A stretch of 64,000 nt of DNA from contig OZ024742.1 of the NCBI GenBank assembly GCA_964016885.1, forward strand, positions 199,144,001 through 199,208,000, read 5' to 3'. Position 1 is the first letter of the stretch. Each line of letters starts with the position of its first letter. This document shows, one piece after another, positions 1-55,800 of this stretch. The notes under the pieces are model-generated. The model searched no databases, had not been told where the DNA came from, and saw only the letters and a program-made list of their open reading frames with translations. This stretch comes from Eledone cirrhosa. Lineage: Eukaryota. Made by a program: the position numbers and the translations under genes.

Positions 1-239
1 TAAACATACTTGCAATGTTATTCTACTGTAAATTTATACAATTGTAATAAACTAAATTGAAATACAAAAAATGTTTGTGAAGTAAATTAAATATGCGTTT
101 TTTTTAAAATATTCTGCTTGTCAAGCCATGTGTTCGAACGTGATGCGTTCAAAGGGAAATAACTTCGTCTTGACTGCAATTGTTATTCTTACATTTTGTA
201 AGTCAACGCGTCAGCAAATATGGGTGTAAAAATAAAAGG

Positions 240-280
240 TACCCACAACTTTCTCAGGAATAAGTGGACGAAGAAGAAAA
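240..280 (+). mobile_element. LINE (RTE-type) 3' terminus with GAA tail
   Basis: cccacaactttctcaggaataagtggacgaagaagaa; a related copy lies on the minus strand at ~37803-37850. Confidence 0.4.
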
Positions 281-496
281 TAAAAGGTGTGAATGGAGGA
301 GGGGAAGTTAACAAATATTAGTGGAAGGGGGAGGCAACGGTTAAAGAAAGGGAAGGCTTTAAAATTTTGATGGGCTGGTGCAGGTGCCGCTCTAACGTAC
401 AGTATAATTTTGGCGGTCGGGCTTATACTTATGAAAAGCGGAACACAGCCGATTATTTTCAGAGAAGGAGAGAAAGTGATAAAAAGAGACAGAAGA

Positions 497-542
497 ATCA
501 ACCCCAGTGCTGGACAGGTGTTTTATTTTACGATCTCGATAG
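497..542 (-). mobile_element. tRNA-derived SINE fragment
   Basis: aatcaaccccagtgctggacaggtgttttattttacgatc matches the SINE body at 5297-5335 and 39045-39090. Confidence 0.5.
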
Positions 543-545
543 ATT

Positions 546-800
546 TGTAAATATCTGGATTTATCCAGTAATTATTTTTTCCACGTTCGAGAGATTTGGT
601 GGAGCTGGGCTGCTGACAGCGAAGTTCTTGTCATCGCTGGCGGCTCGCCTTACTGAGGTGTCAGTTGTCACGGTTATCAGCTGTAGTACTACTTCCCAGA
701 GTGATATGTGATGCTTGTGATGGTGCCTAATTGTTTCAGCACCTTAGCCTCGCCATCATACGTTGCAATGCTACGAGCGTATTGGCTTGCCTGAAAGTTT
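546..800 (+). mobile_element. CRE-clade (RLE-type) non-LTR retrotransposon, degenerate C-terminal endonuclease remnant
   Basis: Frameshifted translation KYLDLSSNYFF / FERFGGAGLLTAKFLSSLAARLTEVS / LFQHLSLAIIRCNATSVLAC fits the CRE C-terminal pattern KY..L...Y.F.P.A.ET.G..G...LFQR.S.AI.RGNA. Confidence 0.7.
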
Positions 801-984
801 TTCATTAATCTTTATGATGTGATGTGCGGCCGATTGTCGCACTTGGTTGTGAATTGGTGGACGTTTTTGTTTTTCTCCCCCCACCCCACCCTTTTTTCTT
901 TTTTTTTCTTTTATGCGTTTATATTTGTGTTTATCAATATTATATTTGTAAGGTTCTTCTGAATGAATTGCGAGCATTTTCTTA

Positions 985-1384
985 AACGTATTTGGACCCT
1001 GTACAGTCGAGCTTATAGCGAGAATACTGGGTTGTATGAATGTAACAAGGAATACATTGTTTGTGTGTATAATATTTAATTAACAATGGTAGATAGTATA
1101 GTTGACATGTCAAAGATGAGGATGGTAGAATGAAGCAAAGTTAGTAGTTACCGTTTTGATTGCCAGGCAAACGCGGCTGGCAGAGGACGCCTGGCTAAGG
1201 CCAGGCGCCTGTTGGCCAAATGAATGGCAGAGCCAAAATGAGAGGCTCTTGACCTGGTGCCGAAAAGGCAATGAGAGAAAGAGAGCTTAAAGTTGTTAGT
1301 TTTATAGGGCTCTGACCGGAAGTTACAGAAAGGGCCCCACTTCCCGTCCAGACGTTAATCCAAACAAGGGAGACAACCGCTACA
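985..1384 (-). mobile_element. Possible solo LTR (Gypsy/BEL-like)
   Basis: Minus strand starts TGTAGCGG, then an ETS site, a TATA-like CCCTATAAA, a pyrimidine-rich start region and an ATTAAA signal; no clean terminal CA, TSD or PBS found. Confidence 0.3.
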
Positions 1385-1720
1385 AGCTCCTCCGCAAGAT
1401 CGGAACGTCAGCGGTCCGTCTGAGGAAAGAGCCCCGTGAGGTGGGGTGTCTGTTGCAGCGGGTGTCGCTGGCAATTGTCCTCGGGAATACTTTTACGGTC
1501 TTGTCCGCCGGGCGCAGTCCCTCTACCCTAGGCCTACAGCCCAATCACCCCACCCCCTTTCCCCTCCTATTCTTTTGTGACACTAGAGTTCTTGCTATTC
1601 CCTCCCCTTCGCATGTTTTCTTTCTTTTTCTCTTTTACCGTTTTTGTTTTTTGTTTATTTTTTCCATTCTTCTCAATCTAAATTTTCTTTTTTTTCCCTT
1701 TTCTATTAAACTGTATTAAC
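1378..1720 (+). mobile_element. CRE-clade non-LTR retrotransposon 3' fragment
   Basis: YKLLRKIGTSAVRLRKEPREVGCLLQRVSLAIVLGNTFTVLS, followed by a ccccaccc/T-rich 3' UTR like that after 800. Confidence 0.7.
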
Positions 1721-1769
1721 ATGATATTATGTAACTGATTGTGCATCTGATCTATACATCGATATCAGA

Positions 1770-2460
1770 ATACTGAATGTTTACAAACCTATGCTGAATG
1801 GTTTTGACTTAACACTGTTTATCCGAACTCAAATACTATGGCATTTGTATAGTCTTGAGAGCTACAATAAACTGTCCATTGATCTCATACTCCTGCAGAC
1901 CTTTTACAACAGGTCTTGTGGAACATGGCAATATACCTTTTCAAGATTTATGAAACAAGCATACTCCTCTTAACAATACTCTCATGATTTCTGAATATTT
2001 GGTCGGCTGTGCTATGTCTGGGGCAAAAACCACACTATTTGTCAACTAGCTTGAACTCGACAATATCCCTACATCTCTTTTCCAAACACTTGGCATAGAC
2101 TTTATTAGGGAGGCATAACAAGGAGATTCCTCTATAATTGGAGCAATCTTTCTTCTCGCTTTTTGAAAATTATGATTATCACTCTTGATTACCATTGTTT
2201 AGGTGCCTTTCCAGAGACTCAAGCCACTTGGCACACACAAGTCTGCCAAAGAATATCTTCTCTATTTAAGACTTTTTAACATCTTGGGCTGAATTCCATC
2301 CTCCTCAGAGACCTTGTCACATTTGAGCTCTTTATTGCTTTGGTGACCTTAGCCTCCATGTGATTAGTCATTGCACCTCATCTGACTGAGTCTTGTAGAT
2401 CAGCAAAGAAGTCTCTTCACCTCGCCAGGATGCAATAACAAACCTGTTTTTAGATATTTT
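1770..2460 (-). mobile_element. RTE LINE (Expander/Rex3-like) reverse transcriptase fragment, degenerate
   Basis: Minus translation: VTKAIKS..DGIQPKMLKSL..VSGKAPKQW..IFKK..DCSNYRGISLLCLPNKVYAKCLEKR..CGF..STADQIF..FINLEKVY, with stops and frameshifts. Confidence 0.8.
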
Positions 2461-2502
2461 TGTTGAGTCATTACAGTCTAGTTTTATTTAAACTATATGA
2501 AT

Positions 2503-2550
2503 AACCCATGCTAGTGAGTAAGATAGACGATGATGATGATGATGATGATA
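2503..2550 (+). mobile_element. RTE 3' tail with (GAT)n
   Basis: aacccatgctag...gacgatgatgatgat, the same tail as at 57690-57740. Confidence 0.55.
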
Positions 2551-2632
2551 TGTATAATAACAATAAACTGTCATTTGTTGAACTGTTATTTATTGGATGA
2601 CAAACATTGACAAATGACAGAAAGAGTGATCA

Positions 2633-2913
2633 GACTTTCTGAAACATTTCTTCACGCTCAGAGTTGCTGAAGCATGGAACAAACTACTTGCATTAGTTGT
2701 TAACTGTCGAGACACTGCATTCTTCAAAACTTCCATGCTTCCCGGAATTTACCAACACTACACCTGATATTCTCCTCCCTACACACCCATGTTTGTGTGT
2801 ATGTATATCAAGATTCATACACTATTCACTTTCCTGACATTTGTACATTATTCTATGTACTATACCTGCACTATACAATCATTTTCATTATACAATCATT
2901 TTCATTATTATTA
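2633..2913 (+). mobile_element. CR1-type LINE 3' fragment
   Basis: FLKHFFTLRVAEAWNKL; highly similar to 39800-40093; ends in (ATT)n. Confidence 0.8.
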
Positions 2914-3284
2914 CTCCTAAAGTTCAGGTCTTCTTTCATGCCTCACTGGAATTCTATTTTTCCTGCCCAATTCAATAACAAGTCAACAGTAAAGACTTGC
3001 CGTCAATAGTTTGTCTTTTACAATGTTAGCAATGCTCTATAATAGGATGTTAAGTGTGAAGAGAATGTTTATTTATAATTGAGTAATTATTTAGGATTTA
3101 GGAGTGGTCATATTTGTAAATGTGTAAATATTTGTTTTTCTAGAAATCAATCAAACAACTTGTTGACAGAAATAGTACTACTAAGGAAAAAAAAAAAAAA
3201 ATAGTCAGACAAAGCAGATTATGTGGTTTATGTCCAAATCCTGCTGAAATCAACATTGTTTTTTTTTTTATCTTGGTGGCTGAT

Positions 3285-3380
3285 TAGTGGCAGTGGAGTG
3301 GTAGAATTGTTATAAAGTTGGACAAGATGATTTGTAATATCGGATCTAGTTCTGTACCTTCTGAGTTCAAATCACACCAA
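3285..3380 (+). mobile_element. tRNA-derived SINE 5' part, degenerate
   Basis: A-box-like tggtagaat and B-box-like ctgagttcaaatc; homologous to 38922-39015. Confidence 0.5.
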
Positions 3381-3522
3381 CTTCTGCCAAGACTTGTAAC
3401 CAGTGGATAGTAACTGCAATAGAAAAACCAATGGAAACATTCTTTAGTCCAATCTGACTAATATTCTTTTCCTTTTTTTTCCATGACAAAGATAAACAAC
3501 TTACAAAAAATGACATGTACAG

Positions 3523-3842
3523 CAGAGCCAGATTTAGACCTTGGAGGGCCCAGGGCACTTCAGGGTTTTTTTGGGGGGGTCTTCATACAGACAAAAATTA
3601 GCATACACAGCACCCCCACCCCCCACCCCCAATTTTACATATCAAAGTCAGCTGGTGCAAGTAATTGGAATGGAAAAGTTATACATATGGGTATTAAATT
3701 CCAAAAATCTAAAAATCTAACCATCCTAAAACTAAAAAGTCCAGCAGGGGGACACAAATAAATTGCTAATGCTATCACTTATGCACTCCCCTCTCCACTG
3801 CACGGAGCCAGCCCCCTTTGTCCCCCATTAAATCCAGCCCTG
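3523..3842. mobile_element. Non-autonomous DNA transposon (PIF/Harbinger-like MITE)
   Basis: Terminal inverted repeats cagagccagattta (3523) and taaatccagccctg (3829-3842). Confidence 0.6.
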
Positions 3843-3929
3843 GTGTACAGTGTTTATAAGGTGGCAAATTGGGAAACTTATTAGAAAATTGAATAAAATA
3901 TTTCACAGGATTTGTTCCAGCTCTCGATG

Positions 3930-4010
3930 CACTGAGTTCACATCCCACTGAGGACAACTTTGCTTTTCATCTTTTCGAGGTCAGTAAATAAAGTACCAGT
4001 GAAGTACTAG
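3930..4010 (+). mobile_element. tRNA-derived SINE body fragment
   Basis: ctgagttcacatccc...actttgcttttcatcttttcgaggtc...aaagtaccagt. Confidence 0.6.
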
Positions 4011-4130
4011 CTCAATTCTTCCTTTATTTCCTCTTTCGTTTACATGTATGAGCCAATCCTCTGTGATACACAATAAAAATCTAATACATGTAAACAAAAC
4101 TTCCTTGTTCTTTTGAATATATGTATATAT

Positions 4131-4830
4131 ATAAACAGAAAAAATGAAACTAAATTTCATTTCCCACTCTTAGTACGGCTGTTACTTAAATATAAGTATG
4201 TACACGTACATACATATATGTATACAGACGTACAGTAGTATGTATATATATATATAAATACATGCACACATTTATATATGTACGTATGGATTCACCGAAC
4301 ATTTATTATAATGCTCGGTGTGTTTGTAAACAAACATCCCGTATTAAGCCGTAGTGTCTAGCAACCATCGTTGCTCGTTTGCTCAACATGTACATACTTA
4401 TATTTAAGTAACAGCCGTACTAAGAGTGGGAAATGAAATTTCATTTCATTTTTTTCCGTTTATCGTTTTTGGTGGACTCGGCCGATTAACCCACTCGATA
4501 TGCAAATTGGGCTACTCAGCCGTTAATATGCATAAGGTAAGTATATACGTTCAACAATCTGGCAGGAAAGTATACGTTGCTGACGATAGCTAATAAGCTT
4601 GAAACTAGTACAGCGTTCCTTTGTCAGTGTTGAACAAATGAGCAACGATGGTTGCTAGACACTACGGCTTAATACGGGATGTTTGTTTACAAACACACCG
4701 AGCATTATAATAAATGTTCGGTGAATCCATACGTACATATATATATGTGTGTGCATGTATGTATATATATATATATACATACTACTGTACGTCTGTATAC
4801 ATATATGTATGTACGTGTACATACTTATAT
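4131..4830 (+). mobile_element. Hammerhead-containing retrozyme / Penelope pseudo-LTR-like insertion with inverted 5' segment
   Basis: 4131-4204 is the reverse complement of 4389-4463; ~4190-4388 is the reverse complement of 4628-4830; direct repeat tgtacatacttatat at 4389 and 4816; TA-rich flanks. Confidence 0.7.
4574..4616 (+). ncRNA. Minimal type I hammerhead ribozyme
   Basis: acgttg-CTGACGA-t agct aata agct t-GAAA-ctaGTA-cagcgt: stem I, intact core, stem II, palindromic ACUAGU stem III and GUA cleavage triplet. Confidence 0.8.
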
Positions 4831-5296
4831 ATATATATATATATACGCAAAAGGGATATTTAATTTGTTGGTAATTCAACAAATATATATGTTTATAACA
4901 GATTCGAAGCACTCGACAGATTTTCTGGAGTATAATATCAATGATATTAAATAAATGGAAACTATATTTATAAAACTATATTTATTCTATAATATATATT
5001 TCAAGGGTACCAAAAATCATAACCAATACCTGGGTCTCCCTAAACTGCCAAAACACAAAATATATGCGCTACAATTTATGTATCTGTTATGTTTATTGTA
5101 TATCAAAGTTTTCTTACCATTTTAGAGTACAAAGACCTAAACTAATAAGGATAAGGGTAAAGATCCCATAACTCCTTGTGGAGTCATAGGGGCACCATCA
5201 TATGACGTATCTAGGGCACTTTGAAACCTGGCAGAGCCCAACCCTCTCCATGTCTGAACACAGCTGATTTCTTTTATAGAGAAAGAATCGACCCCA

Positions 5297-5446
5297 CTAC
5301 TGGACTGGTACATTTTTTATCGATCCCAAAAGGATGAAAGGCAAAGTTGACTATGGCGGGATTTGAACTCAGAGAGCGCAATGAGGTGGGACTAATACCA
5401 TAAGCATTCTATTCGATGTCTTAACGACTCTGCCAATTGACCACCT
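5297..5446 (-). mobile_element. tRNA-derived SINE
   Basis: atcgacccc...ggatgaaaggcaaagttgac...gggatttgaactcag...ctgccaattgaccacc; reverse complement of the 38922 family. Confidence 0.8.
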
Positions 5447-5642
5447 TCTAAACTAACCCCTACAATTAAATTGACCAAATTTGGCCCCCACAATTCAGAA
5501 GGGCTTCCACTGCCCCTGATATTGACTACCTTCTTCTAATTATACATTTCATTATCCAAAATAAAATAATTTCAAGATATTGTTTGGTAATATGACAAAC
5601 CAAATGACATTTCTAGTTCTGACCACACAGTAGAGAAAATAA

Positions 5643-8600
5643 TTGTTGGTGTGGAGAGTGTGTGTTGGTGTGGGGAGTGTGTGTTGGTGTGGAGAGTGTG
5701 TGTTGGAGTGGAGAGTGTGTGTTGGTGTGGAGAGTGTGTGTTGGGGTGGAGAGTGTGTGTTGGTGTGGAGAGTGTGTGTTGGTGTGGGGAGTGTGTGTTG
5801 GTGTGGAGAGTGTGTGTTGGGGTGGAGAGTGTGTGTTGGTGTGGGGAGTGTGTGTTGGAGTGGAGAGTGTGTGTTGGTGTGGAGAGTGTGTGTTGGTGTG
5901 TGTTTGTGTGGAGAGTGTGTGTTGTGCGGGGAGTGTGTGTTGGGGTGGAGAGTGTGTTGGTGTGGAGAGTGTGTCTCTGTGCGGAGAGTGTATGTTGGTG
6001 TGTGTTGGTGTGGAGAGTGTGTGTTGGGGTGGAGAGTGTGTGTTGGTGTGGAGAGTGTGTGTTGGTGTGGAGAGTGTGTGTTGGTGTGACGAGTGTGTGA
6101 TGTTGTGGAGTGTGTGTGTTGGTGTGGAGAGTGTGTGTTGGTGTGGAGAGTGTGTGTTGGTGTGGAGAGTGTGTGTTGATGTGGGGAGTGTGTGTTGGTG
6201 TGGGGAGTGTGTGTTGGTGGGGAGAGTGTGTATTGGTGTGGAGAATGTGTGTTGGGTGGAGAGTGTGTGTTGGTGGGGAGAATGTGTGTTGGTGTGGAGA
6301 ATGTGTGTTGGTGTGGCGAGTGTGTGTTGGGGTGGAGAGTGTGTGTTGGTGTGGGGAGTGTGTGTTGGTGTGGAGAGTGTGTGTTGGTGTGGGGAGTGTG
6401 AGTGTGTGTTGGGGTGGGGAGAGTGTGTTGGTGTGGAGAGTGATTGGTGGGGTGTGTGAGTGTGTTGGGGGTGGGGGTGGGGGTGGAGAGTGTGTGTTGG
6501 GGTGGAGATTGTGGGGTGTGTGTGCCGGTGTGGAGAGTGTGTGTTGATGTGGAGAGTGTGTGTGGTGTGGGGAGTGTGTGTTGGGGTGGAGAGTGTGTGT
6601 TGGTGTGGGGAGTGTGTGTTGGTGTGGAGAGTGTGTGCTTGTGTGGCGAGTGTGTGTTGGTGTGGCGAGTGTGTTGGTGTGGGGAGTGTGTGTTGGTGTG
6701 GCCAGTGTGTGTTGGTGTGGAGAGTGTGTGTTGGTGTGGAGAGTCTGTGTTGGTGTGGGGAGTGTGGGTTGGTGTGAAGAGTGTGTGTTGGTGTGGAGAG
6801 TGTGTGTTGGTGTGGAGAGTGTGTGTTGGTGTGGAGAGTGTGTGTTGGTGTGGAGAGTGTGTGTTGATGTGGGGAGTGTGTGTTGGTGTGGGGAGTGTGT
6901 GTTGGTGTGGAGAGTGTGTGTTGGTGTGGAGATGTGTGTTGGTTCGGGGAGTGTGTGTTGGTGTGGAGAGTGTGTGTTGGTGTGGGGAGTGTGTGTTGGG
7001 GTGGAGAGTGTGTGTTGGTGTGGGGAGTGTGTGTTGGTGTGGAGAGTGTGTGTTTGTGTGGGGAGTGTGTGTTGGTGTGGAGAGTGTGTGTTGGTGTGGA
7101 GAGTGTGTGTTGGTGTGGAGAGTGTGTGTTGGGGTGGGGAGTGTGTGTTGGTGTGGGGAGTGTGTGTTGGTGTGGAGAGTGTGTGTTGATGTGGAGAGTG
7201 TGTGTTGGTGTGGGGAGTGTGTGTTGGTGTGGGGAGTGTGTGTTGGTGTGGGGAGTGTGTGTTGGTGTGGAGAGTGTGTGTTTGTGAGGAGAGTGTGTGT
7301 TGGTGTGGGGAGTGCGTGTTGGTGTGGGGAGTGTGTGTTGGGGTGGAGAGCGTGTGTTGGTGTGGGGAGTGTGTGTTGGTGTGGGGAGTGTGTGTTGGGG
7401 TGGAGAGCGTGTGTTGGTGTGGGGAGTGTGTGTTGATGTGGAGAGTGTGTTGGTGTGGCAAGTGTGTGTTGGTGTGGCAAGTGTGTGTTGGGGTGGAGAG
7501 TGTGTGTTGATGTGGGGAGTGTGTGTTGGTGTGGAGAATGTGTGTTGATGTGGAGAGTGTGTGTTGGTGTGGAGAGTGTGTGTTGGTGTGGAGAGTGTGT
7601 GTTGGTGTGGGGAGTGTGTGTTGGTGTGGAGAGTGTGTGTTGGGGTGGAGAGTGTGTGTTGGTGTGGAGAGTGTGTGTTGGTGTGGGGAGTGTGTGTTGG
7701 TGTGGGGAGTGTGTGTTGGTGTGGAAGGGTGTGTTGGGGTGGAGAGTGTGTGTTGGTGTGGGGAGTGTGCGTTTGTGTGGCGAGTGTGTGTTGGTGTGGA
7801 GAGTGTGTGTTGGTGTGGAGAGTGTGTCTTGGTGTGGAGAGTGTGTGTTCGGGTGGAGAGTGTGTGTTGGTGTGGAGAGTGTGTGTTGGTGTGGGGAGTG
7901 TGTGTTGGTGTGTGTTGGTGTGGGGAGTGTGTGTTGGTGTGTGTTGGTGTGGGGAGTGTGTGTTGGTGTGGGGAGTGTGTGTTGGTGTGGAGAGTGTGCG
8001 TTGGTGTGGGGATTGTGTGGTGGTGTGGAGAGTGTGTGTTGGTGTGGAGAATGTGCGTTGGTGTGGCGAGTGTGTGTTGGTGTGGCGAGTGTGTGTTGGT
8101 GTGGGGATTGTGTGTTGGGGTGTAGAGTGTGTGTTGGTGTGGAGAGTGTGTGTTGGTGTGGGGAGTGTGTGTTGGGGTGGAGAGCGTGTGTTGGTGTGGG
8201 GAGTGTGTGTTGATGTGGAGAGTGTGTTGGTGTGACAAGTGTGTGTTGGTGTGGCGAGTGTGTGTTGGGGTGGAGAGTGTGTGTTGGTGTGGAGAGTGTG
8301 TGTTGGTGTGGGGAGTGTGTGTTGGTGTGGAGAGTGTGTGTTGGTGTGGGGAGTGTGTGTTGGTGTGTGTTGGTGTGGGGAGTGTGTGTTGGTGTGTGTT
8401 GGTGTGGGGAGTGTGTGTTGGTGTGGGGAGTGTGTGTTGGTGTGGAGAGTGTGCGTTGGTGTGGGGATTGTGTGGTGGTGTGGAGAGTGTGTGTTGGTGT
8501 GGAGAATGTGCGTTGGTGTGGCGAGTGTGTGTTGGTGTGGCGAGTGTGTGTTGGTGTGGGGATTGTGTGTTGGGGTGTAGAGTGTGTGTTGGTGTGGAGA

Positions 8601-11600
8601 GTGTGTGTTGGTGTGGGGAGTGTGTGTTGGGGTGGAGAGCGTGTGTTGGTGTGGGGAGTGTGTGTTGATGTGGAGAGTGTGTTGGTGTGACAAGTGTGTG
8701 TTGGTGTGGCGAGTGTGTGTTGGGGTGGAGAGTGTGTGTTGGTGTGGAGAGTGTGTGTTGGTGTGGGGAGTGTGTGTTGGTGTGGAGAGTGTGTGTTGGT
8801 GTGGGGAGTGTGTGTTGGTGTCGGGAGTGTGTGTTGGGGTGGAGAGTGTGTGTTGGTGTGGGGAGTGTGTGTTGGTGTGGGGAGTGTGTGTTGGTGTGGC
8901 CAGTGTGTCTTGGTGTGGAGAGTGTGTGGTTGTTGTGGAGAGTGTGTGTTGGTGTGGAGAGTGTGTGTTGGTGTGGAGAGTGTCTGTTGGTGTGGAGAGT
9001 GTGTGTTGGTATGGTGAGTGTGTGTTGGGGTGGAGAGTGTGTGTTGGTGTGGGGACTGTGTGTTGGGGTGGAGAGTGTGTGTTGGTGTGGGGAGTGTGTG
9101 TTGGGCTGGAGAATGTGTGTTGATGTGGAGAGTGTTTGTTGTTGTGGGGAGTGCGTTGGTGTGGAGAGTGTGTGTTGGTGTGGAGAGTGTGCATTAGAGT
9201 GTGGAGGGTGTGTTGGGGTGGAGAGAGTGTGTTAGTGTGGGGAGTGTGTTTTGGGGTGGAGAGTGTGTGTTGGGCTGGAGAGTTTGTGTTGATGTGGGGA
9301 GTGTGTGTTGGTGTGGGGAGTGCGTTAGGGTGGAGAGTGTGTGTTGGTGTGGGGTGTGTGAGTTGGGTTGGGGAGTGTGAGCATGCTTGGGGAGTGTTTT
9401 GCTGTGGGGAGTGTGAGTTGGTGTGCGGAGTGAGTGTTGGGGTGGAGAGTGTGTGCTGGTGTAGAGAGTGTGTGTTGGTGTGGTGAGTGTGTGTAGGTGT
9501 GGGGAGTGTGCGTAGGTCTGGAGAGTGTGTTGGTGTGGAGAGTGTGTGTTGGTGTGGGGAGTGTGTGTTGGTGTGGAGAGTGTGTGTTGATGTGGAGAGT
9601 GTGTGTTGGTGTGGGGAGTGTGTGTTGGTGTGGGGAGTGTGTGTTGGTGTGGGGAGTGTGTGTTGGTGTGGAGAGTGTGTGTTTGTGAGGAGAGTGTGTG
9701 TTGGTGTGGGGAGTGTGTGTTGGTGTGGGGAGTGTGTGTTGGGGTGGAGAGCGTGTGTTGGTGTGGGGAGTGTGTGTTGGTGTGGGGAGTGTGTGTTGGG
9801 GTGGAGAGCGTGTGTTGGTGTGGGGAGTGTGTGTTGATGTGGAGAGTGTGTTGGTGTGGCAAGTGTGTGTTGGTGTGGCAAGTGTGTGTTGGGGTGGAGA
9901 GTGTGTGTTGATGTGGGGAGTGTGTGTTGGTGTGGAGAATGTGTGTTGATGTGGAGAGTGTGTGTTGGTGTGGAGAGTGTGTGTTGGTGTGGAGAGTGTG
10001 TGTTGGTGTGGAGAGTGTGTCTTGGTGTGGGGAGTGTGTGTTGGTGTGGGGAGTGTGTGTTGGTGTGGAGAGTGTGTGTTGGGGTGGAGAGTGTGTGTTG
10101 GTGTGGAGAGTGTGTGTTGGTGTGGGGAGTGTGTGTTGGTGTGGGGAGTGTGTGTTGGTGTGGAAGGGTGTGTTGGGGTGGAGAGTGTGTGTTGGTGTGG
10201 GGAGTGTGCGTTTGTGTGGCGAGTGTGTGTTGGTGTGGAGAGTGTGTGTTGGTGTGGAGAGTGTGTCTTGGTGTGGAGAGTGTGTGTTCGGGTGGAGAGT
10301 GTGTGTTGGTGTGGAGAGTGTGTGTTGGTGTGGGGAGTGTGTGTTGGTGTGTGTTGGTGTGGGGAGTGTGTGTTGGTGTGTGTTGGTGTGGGGAGTGTGT
10401 GTTGGTGTGGGGAGTGTGTGTTGGTGTGGAGAGTGTGCGTTGGTGTGGGGATTGTGTGGTGGTGTGGAGAGTGTGTGTTGGTGTGGAGAATGTGCGTTGG
10501 TGTGGCGAGTGTGTGTTGGTGTGGCGAGTGTGTGTTGGTGTGGGGATTGTGTGTTGGGGTGTAGAGTGTGTGTTGGTGTGGAGAGTGTGTGTTGGTGTGG
10601 GGAGTGTGTGTTGGGGTGGAGAGCGTGTGTTGGTGTGGGGAGTGTGTGTTGATGTGGAGAGTGTGTTGGTGTGACAAGTGTGTGTTGGTGTGGCGAGTGT
10701 GTGTTGGGGTGGAGAGTGTGTGTTGGTGTGGAGAGTGTGTGTTGGTGTGGGGAGTGTGTGTTGGTGTGGAGAGTGTGTGTTGGTGTGGGGAGTGTGTGTT
10801 GGTGTCGGGAGTGTGTGTTGGGGTGGAGAGTGTGTGTTGGTGTGGGGAGTGTGTGTTGGTGTGGGGAGTGTGTGTTGGTGTGGCCAGTGTGTCTTGGTGT
10901 GGAGAGTGTGTGGTTGTTGTGGAGAGTGTGTGTTGGTGTGGAGAGTGTGTGTTGGTGTGGAGAGTGTCTGTTGGTGTGGAGAGTGTGTGTTGGTATGGTG
11001 AGTGTGTGTTGGGGTGGAGAGTGTGTGTTGGTGTGGGGACTGTGTGTTGGGGTGGAGAGTGTGTGTTGGTGTGGGGAGTGTGTGTTGGGCTGGAGAATGT
11101 GTGTTGATGTGGAGAGTGTTTGTTGTTGTGGGGAGTGCGTTGGTGTGGAGAGTGTGTGTTGGTGTGGAGAGTGTGCATTAGAGTGTGGAGGGTGTGTTGG
11201 GGTGGAGAGAGTGTGTTAGTGTGGGGAGTGTGTTTTGGGGTGGAGAGTGTGTGTTGGGCTGGAGAGTTTGTGTTGATGTGGGGAGTGTGTGTTGGTGTGG
11301 GGAGTGCGTTAGGGTGGAGAGTGTGTGTTGGTGTGGGGTGTGTGAGTTGGGTTGGGGAGTGTGAGCATGCTTGGGGAGTGTTTTGCTGTGGGGAGTGTGA
11401 GTTGGTGTGCGGAGTGAGTGTTGGGGTGGAGAGTGTGTGCTGGTGTAGAGAGTGTGTGTTGGTGTGGTGAGTGTGTGTAGGTGTGGGGAGTGTGCGTAGG
11501 TCTGGAGAGTGTGTTGGTGTGGAGAGTGTGTGTTGGTGTGGGGAGTGTGTGTTGGTGTGGGGAGTGTGTGTTGGGGTGGGGAGTGTGTATTGGTGTGGGG

Positions 11601-14600
11601 AGTGCGTGTTGGTGTGGAGAGTGTGTGTTGGTGTGGGGAGTGTGTGTTGGGGTGGAGAGTGTGTATTGGTGTGGGGAGTGTGTGTTGGTGTTGAGAGTGT
11701 GTGTTGGTGTGGAGAGTGTCTGTTGGGGAGGAGAGCTTGTGTTGGGGTGGTGAGTGTGAGTTGGGGAGGAGAGCTTGTGTTGGGGTGGGGAGTGTGAGTT
11801 GGGTGCAGAGTGTGTGTTGTGTGGGGAGAGTGTGTTGGTGTGGAGAGTGTCTGTTGGGGTGGAGAGTGTGTGTTCGTGTGGAGAGTGTGTGTTGGTGTGG
11901 AGAGTGTGTGTTGGGGTGGAGAGTGTCTGTTGGGGAGGAGAGCTTGTGTTGGGGTGGTGAGTGTGAGTTGGGGTGGGGAGTGTGTGTTGGGTGCAGAGTG
12001 TGTGTTGTGTGGGGAGAGTGTGTTGGTGTGGAGAGTGTCTGTTGGGGTGGAGAGTGTGTGTTCGTGTGGAGAGTGTGTGTTGGTGTGGAGAGTGTGTGTT
12101 TGGGTGGAGAGTGTGTGTTGATGTGGAGAGTGTGTGTTGGTGTGGGGAGTGTGTGTTTGTGTGGAGAGTGTGTGTTGGTGTGGGGAGTGTGAGTTGGTGT
12201 GGGTTTGGGGAGTGTGTGTTGTGGTGGAGAGTGTGTGTTGGGGTGGAGAGTGTGTGTTGGTGTGGGGAGTGTGAGTTGGTGTGGGTTTGGGGAGTGGGTG
12301 TTGTGGTGGAGAGTGTGGGGTGTGTGTGCCGGTGTGGAGAGTGTGTGCTGGTATGGAGAGTATGTGTTTGGGGATAGTGTGTGTTGGGGTGGAGAGTGTG
12401 TGTTGGTGTGGAGAGTGTGTGTTGGTGTGGAGAGTGTGTGTTGGGGTGGAGAGTGTGTGTTGATGTGGAGAGTGTGTGTTGGTGTGGGGAGTGTGTGTTG
12501 GGGTGGAGAGTGTGGGGTGTGTGTGGAGAGTGTGTGATGATGTGGAGAGTGTGTGTTGGTGTGGGGATTGTGTGTTAGTGTGGGGAGTGTGTGCCGGTGT
12601 GGAGAGTGTGTGTTGGTGTGGAGAGTGTGTGTTGGTGTGGAGAGTGTGTGTTGGTGTGGCGAGTGTGTGTTGGGGTGGAGAGTTTGTGTTGGGGTGGAGA
12701 GTGTGTGTTGTTGTGGGAGTGTGTGTCGGTGTGGGGAGAGTGTGTTGGTGTGGAGAGTGTGTGTTGGTGTGGGGAGAGTGTGTTGGTGTGGAGAGTGTGT
12801 GTTGGTCTGCAGAGTGTGTGTTGGTGTGGCGAGTGTGTGTTGGGGTGGAGAGTGTGTGTAGGGGTGGAGAGTGTGTGTTGGTGTGGAGAGTGTGTGTTGG
12901 CGTGGGGAGTGGGAGTGTGTGTTGGTGTGGGGAGAGTGTGTTGGTGTGGAGAGTGTGTGTTGGTGTGGCGAGTGTGTGTTGGGGTGGAGAGTGTGTGTTG
13001 GGGTGGAGAGTGTGTGTTGGTCTGAAGAGTGTGTGTTGGTGTGGGGAGTGTGAGTTGGTGTGGGTTTGGGGAGTGTGTGTTGTGGTGGAGAGTGTGGGGT
13101 GTGTGTGCCGGTGTGGAGAGTGTGTGCTGGTATGGAGAGTGTGTGTTTGTGGATAGTGTGTGTTGGGGTGGAGAGTGTGTGTTGGTGTGGAGAGTGTGTG
13201 TTGATGTGGAGAGTGTGTCTTGGAGTGGGGAGTGTGTGTTGGGGTGGAGAGTGTGGGGTGTGTGTGGAGAGTGTGTTTTGATGTGGAGAGTGTGTGTTGG
13301 TGTGGGGATTGTGTGTTTGGGTGGAGAGTGTGGGGAGTGTGTGCCGGTGTGGAGAGTGTGTGTTGGAGTGGAGAGTGTGTGTTGGTGTGGAGAGTGTGTG
13401 TTGGTGTGGCGAGTGTGTGTTGGGGTGGAGAGTTTGTGTTGGGTGGAGAGTGTGTGTTGGTGTGGAGAGTGTGTGTTGGTGTGGGGAGTGGGAGTGTGTG
13501 TTGGTGTGGAGAGTGTGTGTTGGTGTGGGGAGTGTGAGTTGGTGTGGGTTTGGGGAGTGTGTGTTGTGGTGGAGAGTGTGGGGTGTGTGTGCCGGTGTGG
13601 AGAGTGTGTGTTGGTGTGGGGAGTGTATGTTGGTGTGGGGATTGTGTGTTGAGGTGGGGTGTGTGTGTTTGTGAGGAGAGTGTGTGTTGGTGTGGGGAGT
13701 GTGTGTTGTGTGGGGAGAGTGTGTGTTGGGGTGGAGAGTGTGTGTTGAGCTGGAGAATGTGTGTTGGTGTGGGGAGTGTGTGTTGGTGTGGAGAGTGTGT
13801 GTTGGTGTGGGGATTGTGTGTTGAGGTGGAGAGTGTGTGTTGGTGTGGGGAGTGTGTGCTGGGCTGGAGAATGTGTGTTGATGTGGAGAGTGTGTGTTGT
13901 TGTGGGGAGTGCGTTGGTGTGGAGAATGTGTGTTGGTGTGGAGAGTGTGTGTTGGTGTGGCGAGTGTGTGTTGGGGTGGAGAGTGTGTGTTGGGGTGGAG
14001 AGTGTGTGTTGCTGTGGAGAGTGTGTGTTGGTGTGGGGATTGTGTGTTGAGGTGGAGAGTGTGTGTTGGTGTGGGGAGTGTGTGCTGGGCTGGAGAATGT
14101 GTGTTGATGTGGAGAGTGTGTGTTGTTGTGGGGAGTGCGTTGGTGTGGAGAATGTGTGTTGGTGTGGAGAGTGTGTGTTGGTGTGGCGAGTGTGTGTTGG
14201 GGTGGAGAGTGTGTGTTGGGGTGGAGAGTGTGTGTTGGTGTGGAGAGTGTGTGTTGGTGTGGGGAGTGGGAGTGTGTGTGGGTTTGGGGAGTGTGTTTTG
14301 TGGTGGAGAGTGTGGGGTGTGTGTGCCGGTGTGGAGAGTGTGTGTTGTTGTGGGGAGTGCGTTGGTGTGGAGAATGTGTGTTGGTGTGGAGAGTGTGTGT
14401 TGGTGTGGCGAGTGTGTGTTGGGGTGGAGAGTGTGTGTTGGGGTGGAGAGTGTGTGTTGGTGTGGAGAGTGTGTGTTGGTGTGGGGAGTCGGAGTGTGTG
14501 TGGGTTTGGGGAGTGTGTTTTGTGGTGGAGAGTGTGGGGTGTGTGTGCCGGTGTGGAGAGTGTGTGTTGATGTGGAGAGTGTGTGTTGGGCTGGAGAGTG

Positions 14601-42602: not shown

Positions 42603-43685
42603 AATCATCATCATCTTTTAACGTCCATCTACCACGCTTGCATGGGTTTGGATGGGAGTTTTCCCACTTGAGGCAAGATTGGTTGTCTTGCTCGTATAGG
42701 ACTGTCTGGCGGGTTTTCTACGGCTGGATGCCCTTCCTGACACCAATCACATTTACAGTGTGGACTGGGAGGTTTTTACCGTGTTACCTACACGGCTACA
42801 TTACAGCGTGGACTGTGTTTTTTTTTTGTCGTGACACCTACACGTGTGGCGGGTTTTCTACGGCTGGGTGCCCTTCCCAACACCAACCACGTTTACAGTG
42901 TGGACTGGGAGGTTTTTACCGTGTTACCTACACGGCCACATTACAGCGTGGACTGTGTTTTTTTTTTGTCGTGACACCTACACGTGTGGCGGGTTTTCTA
43001 CGGCTGGGTGCCCTTCCCAACACCAACCACGTTTACAGTGTGGACTGGGAGGTTTTTACCGTGTTACCTACACGGCCACATTACAGCGTGGACTGTGTTT
43101 TTTTTTGTCGTGACACCTACACGACCTCATTTGTTTCGGACTGGATGTTGTGGTACCAACATAACACTTCACATTTAAGGGGGTGGTGTGGATGGGGTGT
43201 AGGTAGTGGGACGGGGTGTATTTTGTTAGATGTGCCTACTGACTGTAGGTTTCGCTTTGTACTTAGGCAAGGCGGGTATTCTGTATAACTGTGTAGCCCC
43301 AAAGATCTCGGTCCAGTGACATTGTCTTGGAGAGGTGTAAGTGTGTGAGGTCGGAATTTATCAAGTCGTCCCAGGTTTTTCTGGGTCCGCCTACTCCGTG
43401 GCTACCGTCTATTTTTATTGCCCTGCACTTTGTTATACAGCTGTCGTCTTTTATGCGCATCACGTGACCGTACCAATGTAGTCTTCTTTCGAGTAAACAA
43501 CATCTGATCCCTCTTATTCCTAATTTCTCCCTTAGTTCGTTTATGCTTTGCCGTTCACATATATTACTATTACACATCCAGCGGTGCATGCAAGCTTCGT
43601 TTCTCTCCAATCTGCGCATATCCTCTCCACACAATGCCCAGGTCTCACTGCCATGTAACATTGTTGTTCGTATGCAGGCATCATA
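42603..43685 (-). mobile_element. RTE LINE 5'-truncated copy
   Basis: MLHGSETWAL...RRLHWYGHVMR...PRKTW, 3' UTR and (GAT)n tail; same family as 52391-53250. Confidence 0.9.
42707..43123. repeat. 140-bp tandem triplication within the RTE 3' UTR
   Basis: Units start at 42707, 42847 and 42987; copies 2 and 3 are nearly identical. Confidence 0.95.
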
Positions 43686-43790
43686 ATGTATGTATATATA
43701 TATATATATATATATATAACTTTGATAGGTTTCAACCAGTACTGGCCCAGGCCGTGTCTAACTTAATAGCACCACCTATATATATATATT

Positions 43791-52859: not shown

Positions 52860-55800
52860 TTAGAGAGGTGTAAGGTCGGAATTTATCAAATCGTCCCAGG
52901 CTTTTCTGGGTCTACCTACTCCGTAACTACCATCAATTTTGATCGCCCTGCACTTTTTTATACAGCTGTCGTCTTTCATGCGCATCACGTGACCATACCA
53001 ACGCAGTCTTCTCTCGAGTAAACAGCATTTGATCCCTCTTATTCCTAATTTCTCACTTAGTTCATTTATGCTTTGCCGTTCACGTATATTACTATTACAC
53101 ATCCAACGGAGCATGCATGCTTCGTTCCTTTCCAGTCTACGCAGGTCCTCTGCACGTAATGCCCATGTCTCACTACCATGTAGCATTGTTGTTCGTATAC
53201 AAGCATCATACAATCTGCCTTTCATTTTTAGAGAGAAACCTTTTGTGGCCAACAGCGGTATAAGCTCTCTGAACTTTTTCCAGCCCGTTCTGACTGGCTA
53301 CTGTACTTTCAGAACACCCTCAACCACTGCTGATTTTGTCACCCAGGTAACGGAAAGTGTCTACTATTTCTATAGAACCATCTGGGCAATCGAAGGGGCT
53401 TGTATCCTGTGGACACTTGCTACCTATTGCACCTGAGCATCGGCCACATATAAAGTCTACGTTCTTAGATAGTTTACCTGTGATCCCACTACATCTTTTA
53501 TGTACCCATACTTTGCATTTGGGACATAAAATTAAATTTCTGCCTACTCCTTTCCTACACACTGAGCAAGGCCATTTCCCTGAGGGTACCTGTGCCTTAT
53601 TTTCCTTTCTACAAACTAGGACTTTAGTCTTAGACAAGTTAACTTTAAGGCCTTTTGATTCTAGGCCATGCTTTCATGTTTGGAATTTCTTTTCTAGTTC
53701 AGCCATTGATTCAGGTATGAGCGTTAGCCCCCTTAGCCCTCTGTCCTTAACCCCCTCCTATTTATTATTGCCTGAAGGGCAATAATAAATAGGAGGGGGC
53801 TAAGGACAGAGCCTTTGTGAACACCAACTTTTACATTAAATTCTCAATATTCATTGTTAATTCTAACCTTACTGACTATTTCATTATACATAGCTTGTAT
53901 AGCTCTCAGAAGTCATTCATCTACACCTGGTGTTCTAAGAGCCCACCAGATAATGGAGCGGAGGACTCTGTCAAAGGTCTTTTCCAGGTCTACAAAAGCT
54001 AAGTAGAGGGGTTTACTTTTATCTAGGTACTTCTCTTGTAGTTGTACAAGGAAAAGAGCGTCTGTGGTACTTTTACCTGATACAAACCCAAACTGCATTT
54101 CATCTAGATCAATTCGCTCTCTGATTAGTTGCGCTATAACTCTTTCTGTGACCTTCATGACCTGGTCAACTAACTTAATGCCTCTATAGTTTCCTCTATC
54201 TAGAGCATCCCCTTTACCCTTGTAGCAGTTAATGATGATGCTGCTACGCCAGTCTTTTGGTATGACCCCATTCTGTATTACCTGCTTAACTATACGGGTG
54301 ACCATAGTGTGTCCCACCATACCAGATGCCTTCAACATCTCAGCAACTATCTCCGAAGGCCCAGCTGCCTTGCCTGTCTTCATATCTTTGATTGCCTTAC
54401 TTATTATACTACCTTTAACTTGCACCGCTGGTCCTTCTATTGGATCGATTTGGGGCAGACTATCTTTTTCCCACTTATTCTCCTCATTTAATAGTCTCTC
54501 GTAGTGACACTTCCAGGCTATCTTCTTATCAGCATCTGTGAGGGCAAGTAGACTGTTATCATTACGGACACATTTCTCCCCGACAATATCACGGTTTTCC
54601 TTGACACATTGCCTAGCAATCCTGAACACCTCGCGCTTTTGATCCTCACGTTGTAGAACATGCTTGAACTTTCTTTCCTCTGCTTCCCTTTTTGCAAGGG
54701 ACACTTGTCTCCTAGCTTTTCTCCTGGCCACTTGATAGTGCTCTCTACTTCCCCCATCCTGCCATACTTTCCAAGCCTGCTTTTTGGCCTTGATTGTCTC
54801 TTCCACCACCAAGTTACTCTCCTCCTGCCAATAGGTCTGCTCCAGCCACAGATTTCATCCGTTGCTTTCAGCAGGTTCACTTTCAAGAATTGCCACTGTT
54901 CCTCTATATCGCACGTCTCTAATTGCTCTTCCTTATTGTCAAAGGCATCAAGTAATAAGCTTTTAAATTTGTCACTGGCTATGGGGTCTTTCAACTTCCA
55001 TATTCTTCTCCTCAAGGTAGGCCTCCTCTGTCGTCGAGTATGTCTATTCCTGACTGTGAGGTCACTAACTACTAGGCTATGTTGGGAGGTGCATTCTTCA
55101 CAGGGGAGGGATTTAATGTTTACAACAGACACTTTGTCCCGTCTTCTAGTAAGGATATAATCTATCTGGCTGGCGTGTTCCCCTGATCTATAGGTGATCA
55201 AGTGGTTTTCACGTTTTTTGAAGTTTGTGTTACAGATAGTTAGGTTATTGGCGTCACATAATTCCAGGATTCTGAAGCCTTCCTCATTTCTATTTCCAAC
55301 CCCATAGCCTCCATGGATTCCATCATAGCCATCACTATGTTGTCCAACATGGCCGTTTAGATCGCCAGCAATAATTAGGTAGTCGCTGTCTGTTATTTGG
55401 GAGGTAGTGTGCATTAGCGTCTCATAGAACCTGTCTTTATAACGTCAAGTAGACCAGATTGGGGTGCATAAGCGGATATTATTGTCACAGTAGTTTTATT
55501 TAGAACTAGCCTTATTTTAATTATTCTATCATTTACTCTATTTACGTCGATTACCTTATCTACCCATTTTTCAACTAACATAATTCCTAGTCCACCCAGT
55601 CCGTTGTCATTTCCCACCTAGAAAAGTTTATAGCATCGTTTTTTACCCACGATGAATCTGGCATACCCCCCCCCCCCCCTCTCTCCACCTAGTCTCTTGA
55701 ATACAACAAACATCAACTTCTTTACGTTCAAGCATCTCTACAACCTCATTTGAGCGACCTTTTAATGTGCCTACGTTCATGGTACCAACTCTGAAGTTGG

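Follow-up and report, generated by a model that had tools for sequence, protein, structure and literature searches.

Animal non-LTR retrozymes are built of head-to-tail repeats of about 150-450 bp, and the closest described relatives of the element reported here belong to this class (Cervera & de la Pena 2020, PMC7229834). The accessible text of that paper presents short, low-GC tandem units with one canonical type I hammerhead ribozyme each and no ORF, in thousands of copies and in genomes that also hold Penelope-like elements. RNA circles are shown there for mussel, coral and axolotl. Vertebrate retrozymes (Li, Clavereau & Pollet 2026, bioRxiv 10.64898/2026.07.22.740005) are of the same class and have the same proposed Penelope partner. 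In the available sections of that preprint, which cover 35 genomes and no mollusc, the link is made by co-occurrence and by sequence likeness to pseudo-LTRs. For the Penelope-like elements themselves, the accessible part of Craig et al. 2021 (PMC8557442) gives a tail, inversion and (TA)n targets as hallmarks, the tail often being one-ended. In the anole Poseidon element PAc (Frangieh et al. 2024, PMC11167929), the tail maps between two internal start sites, both strands use the same start sites in vitro with no strand difference, and insertion is possible without cleavage. How animal retrozymes move, and how Penelope elements come to make tandem and inverted one-tailed insertions, are open fields, as far as the accessible text of these four sources goes (PMC7229834, PMC8557442, PMC11167929, bioRxiv 10.64898/2026.07.22.740005).

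The window analysed here is a 64,000-nt stretch of the Eledone cirrhosa genome. Within an (AT)n tract it holds a 427-nt unit that carries a type I hammerhead motif, next to a second arm that is inverted and 5'-truncated. We consider this insert a probable copy of a non-LTR retrozyme, made by a Penelope-like enzyme acting in trans on a likely circular RNA template; that the retrozyme was moved by Penelope-type machinery is highly probable. The family is a further member of the described animal non-LTR retrozyme class and not a truncated Penelope end. Unit coordinates (u) count from u1 = window position 4389, and the features are these:

4117..4130, no strand: left portion of the (AT)n target microsatellite (from the sequence, and from ATAT after tail ends elsewhere in the family)
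4131..4388, minus strand: inverted arm of 258 nt, 5'-truncated at u240, 3' end at the tail site u75, without a hammerhead
4131..4189, minus strand: tail u16-u75, at this insertion end only, inner boundary approximate (from the family end rule)
4389..4830, plus strand: main arm, made up of the 427-nt unit and a further 15 nt, with its 3' end at the no-tail site u15
4404..4463, plus strand: hairpin-folding internal tail copy of 60 nt, lying between the two fixed end sites
4500..4507, plus strand: octamer ATGCAAAT, a possible snRNA-type promoter element, a lead only (from conservation counts)
4549..4635, plus strand: predicted long stem extending helix I and presenting the ribozyme (from the fold against shuffles)
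4574..4616, plus strand: type I hammerhead motif, with cleavage predicted after A4610 and a helix III that is predicted to form only with a second copy
4696..4723, plus strand: hairpin (pair probability 0.99 in the circular ensemble)
4729..4830, plus strand: AT-rich segment, self-complementary and variable in length, that runs up to the no-tail site
4831..4845, no strand: right portion of the (AT)n target microsatellite (from the sequence)

This layout agrees with an earlier, sequence-only reading of the same DNA, which had proposed a 427-nt unit and an inverted copy over the unit's end-to-start junction. A 15-mer at 4389 recurs at 4816, giving the period of 427. The reverse complement of 4131-4388 runs from u240 to u427 and on to u75, spanning the junction, and BLAST finds 95.6% over 206 nt common to the inverted arm and 4628-4833. 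The two arms join 5' to 5', and their 3' ends face outward into (AT)n. The earlier reading had also taken the joined end and start as evidence of a circle. This did not carry over: the arrangement is the ordinary Penelope tail arrangement and occurs in the autonomous elements of this genome too, so the junction alone does not show a circle. Its claim that the unit has no meaningful ORF stands, with only low-complexity frames of at most 91 aa overlapping the insert, and so does the hairpin it had placed at 4696-4723.

Judged from its sequence, the unit has the make-up of a retrozyme: a putative type I motif in each unit, no ORF and no joined reverse transcriptase (RT), and a low GC content of 36% (0.361). 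Its length lies within the retrozyme repeat range, and that of a sister family slightly above it. The single ORF for RT and a GIY-YIG endonuclease that marks autonomous Penelope-like elements is absent from the unit. The likest published families, from the accessible text of PMC7229834, are the 350-390-nt family of Mytilus galloprovincialis and axolotl Rtz_353 (HHR_Amex2). The elements described here have another sequence and slightly longer units, and the fixed tail and no-tail ends, inverted arms and (AT)n targeting are not described in that text. It does mention larger target duplications, which are unreadable inside (AT)n here. Cleavage and circles have been shown for those retrozymes and are proposed for the window family. 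Newt satellite 2 and the Schistosoma hammerhead satellites are likewise hammerhead-bearing tandem repeats, but they form long blocks, whereas the present family consists of dispersed short insertions.

Around the insertion, the target flanks 4110-4133 and 4830-4853 are 88% complementary over 24 nt, and the empty site could form a hairpin; this may be chance. At a distance on either side, 3932-4006 and 5298-5372 are inverted repeat copies (76% complementary) that we take to be SINE-like. Elsewhere in the window, a 31.6-kb satellite at 5644-37222 has a 19-bp G/T-rich unit in ~1,668 copies with a GC skew >0.9, and its recurring internal variants suggest higher-order blocks. Frames of a LINE-type reverse transcriptase and endonuclease, broken and by eye RTE-like, lie at 52860-55444 (-) and 43263-43757 (-).

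The hammerhead at 4574-4616 consists of a 6-bp helix I, CUGACGA, a 4-bp helix II with a basal U.U pair, GAAA, and a helix III formed by palindromic ACUAGU, with the GUA triplet at 4608-4610. A hammerhead had been proposed at this position, and motif and fold both bear it out. Exact patterns were counted across the 3.0-Gb genome with reversed-pattern controls, and the hammerhead core pattern has 28,815 matches against 0 for its reverse, so the motif is not due to chance. The description of it as minimal was mistaken. The minimal hammerheads of Penelope pseudo-LTRs have a long helix II (7-8 bp) and a short helix I (4-5 bp), and by the definitions in the accessible part of PMC4209133 the window hammerhead, with 6 and 4 bp in helices I and II, is of canonical metazoan type I build. 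It shares its 2-bp helix III and the U.U pair at the base of helix II with axolotl HHR_Amex2, which, in the accessible text of PMC7229834, cleaves weakly alone and well as a dimer.

Covariance models gave a different answer from motif and fold: Rfam reports no hammerhead in 1-12000 at E<=5, nor in 4480-4700 even at E<=10, so the call rests on motif, fold and variation. Rfam miRNA hits were rejected as AT-tract matches with scores below gathering. As for variation, 107 of 147 units keep core and stems intact, the U.U pair is usual (146/147 units at each position), and the helix I pair 4577-4613 changes on both sides, from U.G to G.U or A-U in sister types. The circular fold of the unit has an MFE of -140.7 (z -8.4, 40 shuffles), and the unit core minus the AT tract still reaches z -6.0 (40 shuffles). 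The long stem, folded as 4545-4645, has z -2.59, with 5 of 200 shuffles equally good. The circular fold model has helices I and II but lacks the 2-bp helix III, which is what a ribozyme in need of a second copy should show.

The octamer ATGCAAAT is conserved no better than background 8-mers: it is intact in 116 of 147 units against a median of 118, and is retained in 14 of 15 sister-family units. Newt satellite 2 is reported to have an internal snRNA-type promoter (cited in the accessible part of PMC2220036), and the octamer is a candidate element of that kind only. A strong splice donor proposed at ~4537 was rejected, as T4538 is present in 118 of 147 units and A in 27, and the sister family has A.

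The family is large. The suggestion that a genome-wide search would yield tandem copies without RT was borne out by many head-to-tail arrays. A DNA search with the unit returned 960 candidates, and the 40 that were scored contain at least 43 near-full matches at 94-100%. Thirty loci, two of them overlapping, hold head-to-tail arrays, often with an inverted arm and with no common flanks. Two or more near-full units occur in 23 of 105 arms, and the unit period varies with the AT tract, at about 420-440 nt across the family. Under Li et al. 2026, whose available sections reserve "active" for retrozymes with at least two consecutive complete hammerhead units, the window copy with its single hammerhead would not count as active. 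With one ribozyme, it is probably a dead end for making circles.

One array (L168:315-5063) has ten units, alternating between 420 and 422 nt, with identical internal units. This is a sign of local expansion of a dimer after insertion. Long arrays thus grew in part after insertion, and array length is no proof of rolling synthesis. Median divergence is 2.5% within arms (95 pairs), 3.4% between opposite arms (35) and 4.8% between loci (10,601). Likeness within arrays did not separate rolling synthesis from later expansion, and identical units also occur at different loci.

A sister family, ~75-80% alike, has units of 466-511 nt, 12,458 exact matches to its own motif and the same build. Two examples (L151:840-1800 and L091:7589-9001) have the same tail and apparently the same end pattern. 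In contigs of organism B, a 301-nt piece at depth 5.6 is 3 letters off the sister family; it may be contamination and is not evidence. More distant family pieces in organism C contigs were likewise not used as evidence. Contigs of this kind came from four sequencing runs and speak for presence only. The earlier reading had called the family possibly undescribed. Its class is already described, and we found no paper on this family or on retrozyme end rules, although Repbase, Dfam and supplements may hold the family. In the accessible main text of an octopus repeat paper (PMC13282606), the words "ribozyme" and "retrozyme" are absent.

Arms of the family end at one of two sites 60 nt apart: those that reach u75 carry the 60-nt tail, and those that end at u15 lack it. 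Exact ends running into (AT)n number 3,808 at u75 and 1,568 at u15, with 0 for both reversed controls. The pairing of ends was scored in end-anchored loci that were selected for exact end matches within the first 113 Mb of one chromosome, with duplicated blocks removed. Sixty-eight loci were anchored at a tail end (35 inverted, 31 single, 2 unscored) and 48 at a no-tail end (35 inverted, 10 single, 2 unscored, 1 cut off). The far end of the 35 inverted tail-anchored insertions was no-tail in 33, tail in 0 and elsewhere in 2. For the 35 inverted no-tail-anchored insertions it was a tail in 22, none in 3, elsewhere in 5 and out of the locus in 5. With shared insertions removed, tail to no-tail far ends stand at 0/33 versus 20/3 (Fisher p 2e-12). 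Three no-tail/no-tail insertions violate a strict one-tail rule; the window copy conforms to it. The share of single arms, 31/68 against 10/48, suggests that the tail site is used first. Among loci not chosen by end pattern, ATAT follows the terminal tail end in 26 of 27 cases and the no-tail site, where the unit does not continue past it, in 16 of 20.

These footprints are Penelope-like: 5' truncation, an inverted 5'-truncated partner, a one-ended tail and insertion into (TA)n. The likeness to the endonuclease-bearing Neptune/Nematis elements, as the accessible part of PMC8557442 describes them, and to PAc extends to partial tandems, AT-rich or (TA)n targets, two internal start sites and a hammerhead in the repeat. 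The retrozyme unit differs from them in that it has no RT/GIY-YIG ORF and closes on itself, and its tail is 60 nt long versus 30-40 nt. The earlier proposal of a non-autonomous hammerhead retroelement mobilised by Penelope machinery is supported, including tandem and inverted copies that lack RT. A SINE, MITE or satellite that spread through LINE machinery or recombination, with a hammerhead-like motif arising by chance, would fit the abundance of LINE pieces, the Rfam result and the local growth of some arrays. But a poly(A) end and a fixed terminal inverted repeat are both absent, Penelope-like elements share the two internal 3' ends and the one-tail rule, and the motif is complete in its core bases, with stem changes on both sides of a pair. 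We regard this explanation as extremely unlikely.

The genome also offers autonomous elements for comparison. At least four autonomous Penelope families have RT and GIY-YIG domains (4 proteins scanned), and most have CX4CxxC ahead of GIY-YIG, a motif of Neptune/Nematis type in the accessible text of PMC8557442. Long frames, measured stop to stop, reach 938 codons in L081, 844 in L082 and 1,096 in L083; autonomous Penelope families were also seen at L084-L100 and L221-L240. The hammerhead-like motifs of these families also have the U.U pair, and their helix III is again palindromic. Three families have the U3-A8 core variant, known from the accessible part of PMC4209133, and one of the three has GCAA in place of the core GAAA. 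Their two end sites lie ~40-60 nt apart, in (AT)n. In the outward-facing pairs with both ends visible (L042, L087, L092, L096, L098), the tail is one-ended in 5 of 5. Left out of this count were L081, L093 and L097, where the second motif is internal or comes from another insertion, and the tail boundaries in two autonomous families run into simple repeats.

Could the copies then derive from an autonomous Penelope-like element, as its 5'-truncated 3' ends (pseudo-LTRs)? In tail, inversion, truncation and (AT)n target they match Penelope-like elements exactly, both those of this genome and those in the accessible part of PMC8557442, and the partner search covered 60 stretches (L041 and L093 overlapping) around 150 listed GIY-YIG matches of 10,597 candidates. 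No autonomous partner with sequence matching the unit was found in those 60 stretches, nor any pseudo-LTR match of the kind reported by Li et al. 2026; the link drawn here is the insertion footprint. Along the arrays each tail is followed at once by the next hammerhead, with a constant period, whereas the tail of autonomous families is followed by the ORF start (L081, L093). By coordinates, and with overlaps included, Penelope coding sequence is continuous with the unit in 0 of 210 anchored loci; Penelope protein fragments lie nearby in 24 of the 210, none continuous with the unit. The locus is not unique, nor are all its homologues attached to RT. Forty-one single arms share no upstream sequence except unit pieces and common repeats. 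An origin as pseudo-LTRs is very unlikely.

Two candidate partner signals were rejected. The CCGTTTAT end of L098 lies at its family's no-tail end and is absent from the family's other copies, and L092 is not a fusion, with ~90 nt of AT-rich repeat between the two elements. Of 12 matches to the U3-A8/CTAG pattern, 9 are mutated copies of the retrozyme, 2 belong to a Penelope family in which CCGG is the norm, and 1 is unrelated. In the two Penelope-family copies, L275 and L276, helix III has CTAG, the form fixed in the retrozymes, in place of CCGG; this is the change expected of CpG decay on both strands.

The predicted cut site, u222|223, allows the template to be read from the copies. If cut linear monomers had been copied, arms could not cross it. 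Among 160 arms not chosen by length, 98 cross the site in 138 passes, with 5 stops within 6 nt and 4.3 expected from the overall stop rate. All 195 arms, length-selected loci included, give 185 passes and 6 stops against 5.2 expected. A gap or indel at the site occurs in 0 of 147 units. Read-through without extra stops or scars indicates a template that is continuous across the site, either a circle or an uncut multimer, and the genomic evidence against a cut linear template, like that in favor of Penelope-type mobilisation, is unusually clear. Template jumping is known in non-LTR reverse transcriptases, and an enzyme could jump precisely from the 5' end of a cut linear monomer to the 3' end of another. 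With no excess of stops and no indels at the site, such jumping would need to be near perfect, and we find it very unlikely.

A harder question is which continuous template was used. The same enzyme could have copied the same element from a linear array transcript that was never cut; the hammerhead would then be a weak or protein-dependent leftover, and no circle would take part in transposition. Read-through at the cut site fits this equally, and helix III does not form in the monomer model. The main substrate of the anole element is uncut RNA (PMC11167929), and in the accessible sections of bioRxiv 10.64898/2026.07.22.740005 one of nine Xenopus retrozyme dimers cleaved in vitro and eight did not. 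Against it, the median arm of 378 nt is under one unit; linear copying alone should shorten the lineage, unless arrays regrow. Both families also retain the hammerhead core, and comparable mussel elements are mostly circles in the accessible text of PMC7229834. An uncut array transcript is a possible template that we take seriously but do not favor. The short median arm and the mussel circles lead us to lean somewhat toward a circular template over an uncut linear multimer.

The preferred reading, a retrozyme copied from a circle by a Penelope-type enzyme, would work as follows. Arrays of two or more units would be transcribed, paired hammerheads would excise ~425-nt monomers, and a host ligase would close these into circles. 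A Neptune/Nematis-type Penelope-like RT-endonuclease, acting in trans, would nick both strands of an (AT)n tract. Internal priming would start from u75 on one strand and, in some of the events, from u15 on the other. The two cDNAs would go round the template, stop at random and then be joined 5' to 5'.

It is tempting to go one step further, and we do so tentatively. A dimeric Penelope-type enzyme may carry out an ordered, two-ended rolling-circle reverse transcription of the ribozyme-made circle, with the first strand at the tail site, the second 60 nt upstream, and never twice at the tail. This strongly asymmetric use of start sites between the two ends stands in contrast to PAc in vitro, where the strands did not differ (PMC11167929). 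Alternatively, both strands could be primed at u75 and the tail then removed at one end.

The class is known and the one-ended tail has already been described qualitatively, so the family is a useful extension and not a new kind of system. It links retrozymes and Penelope by their footprint, beside the autonomous elements of one genome, and it yields two rules that can be checked by counting: an inverted insertion has one tail, and arms do not stop at the ribozyme site. Its ~29,000 ribozyme copies, some of them near-identical, offer a small RNA substrate for a direct test. If the proposal is true, these copies would be a genomic record of retrozyme circles as true transposition templates, and the 425-nt unit would be a minimal substrate for learning how Penelope elements make their tandems, inversions and one-ended tails.
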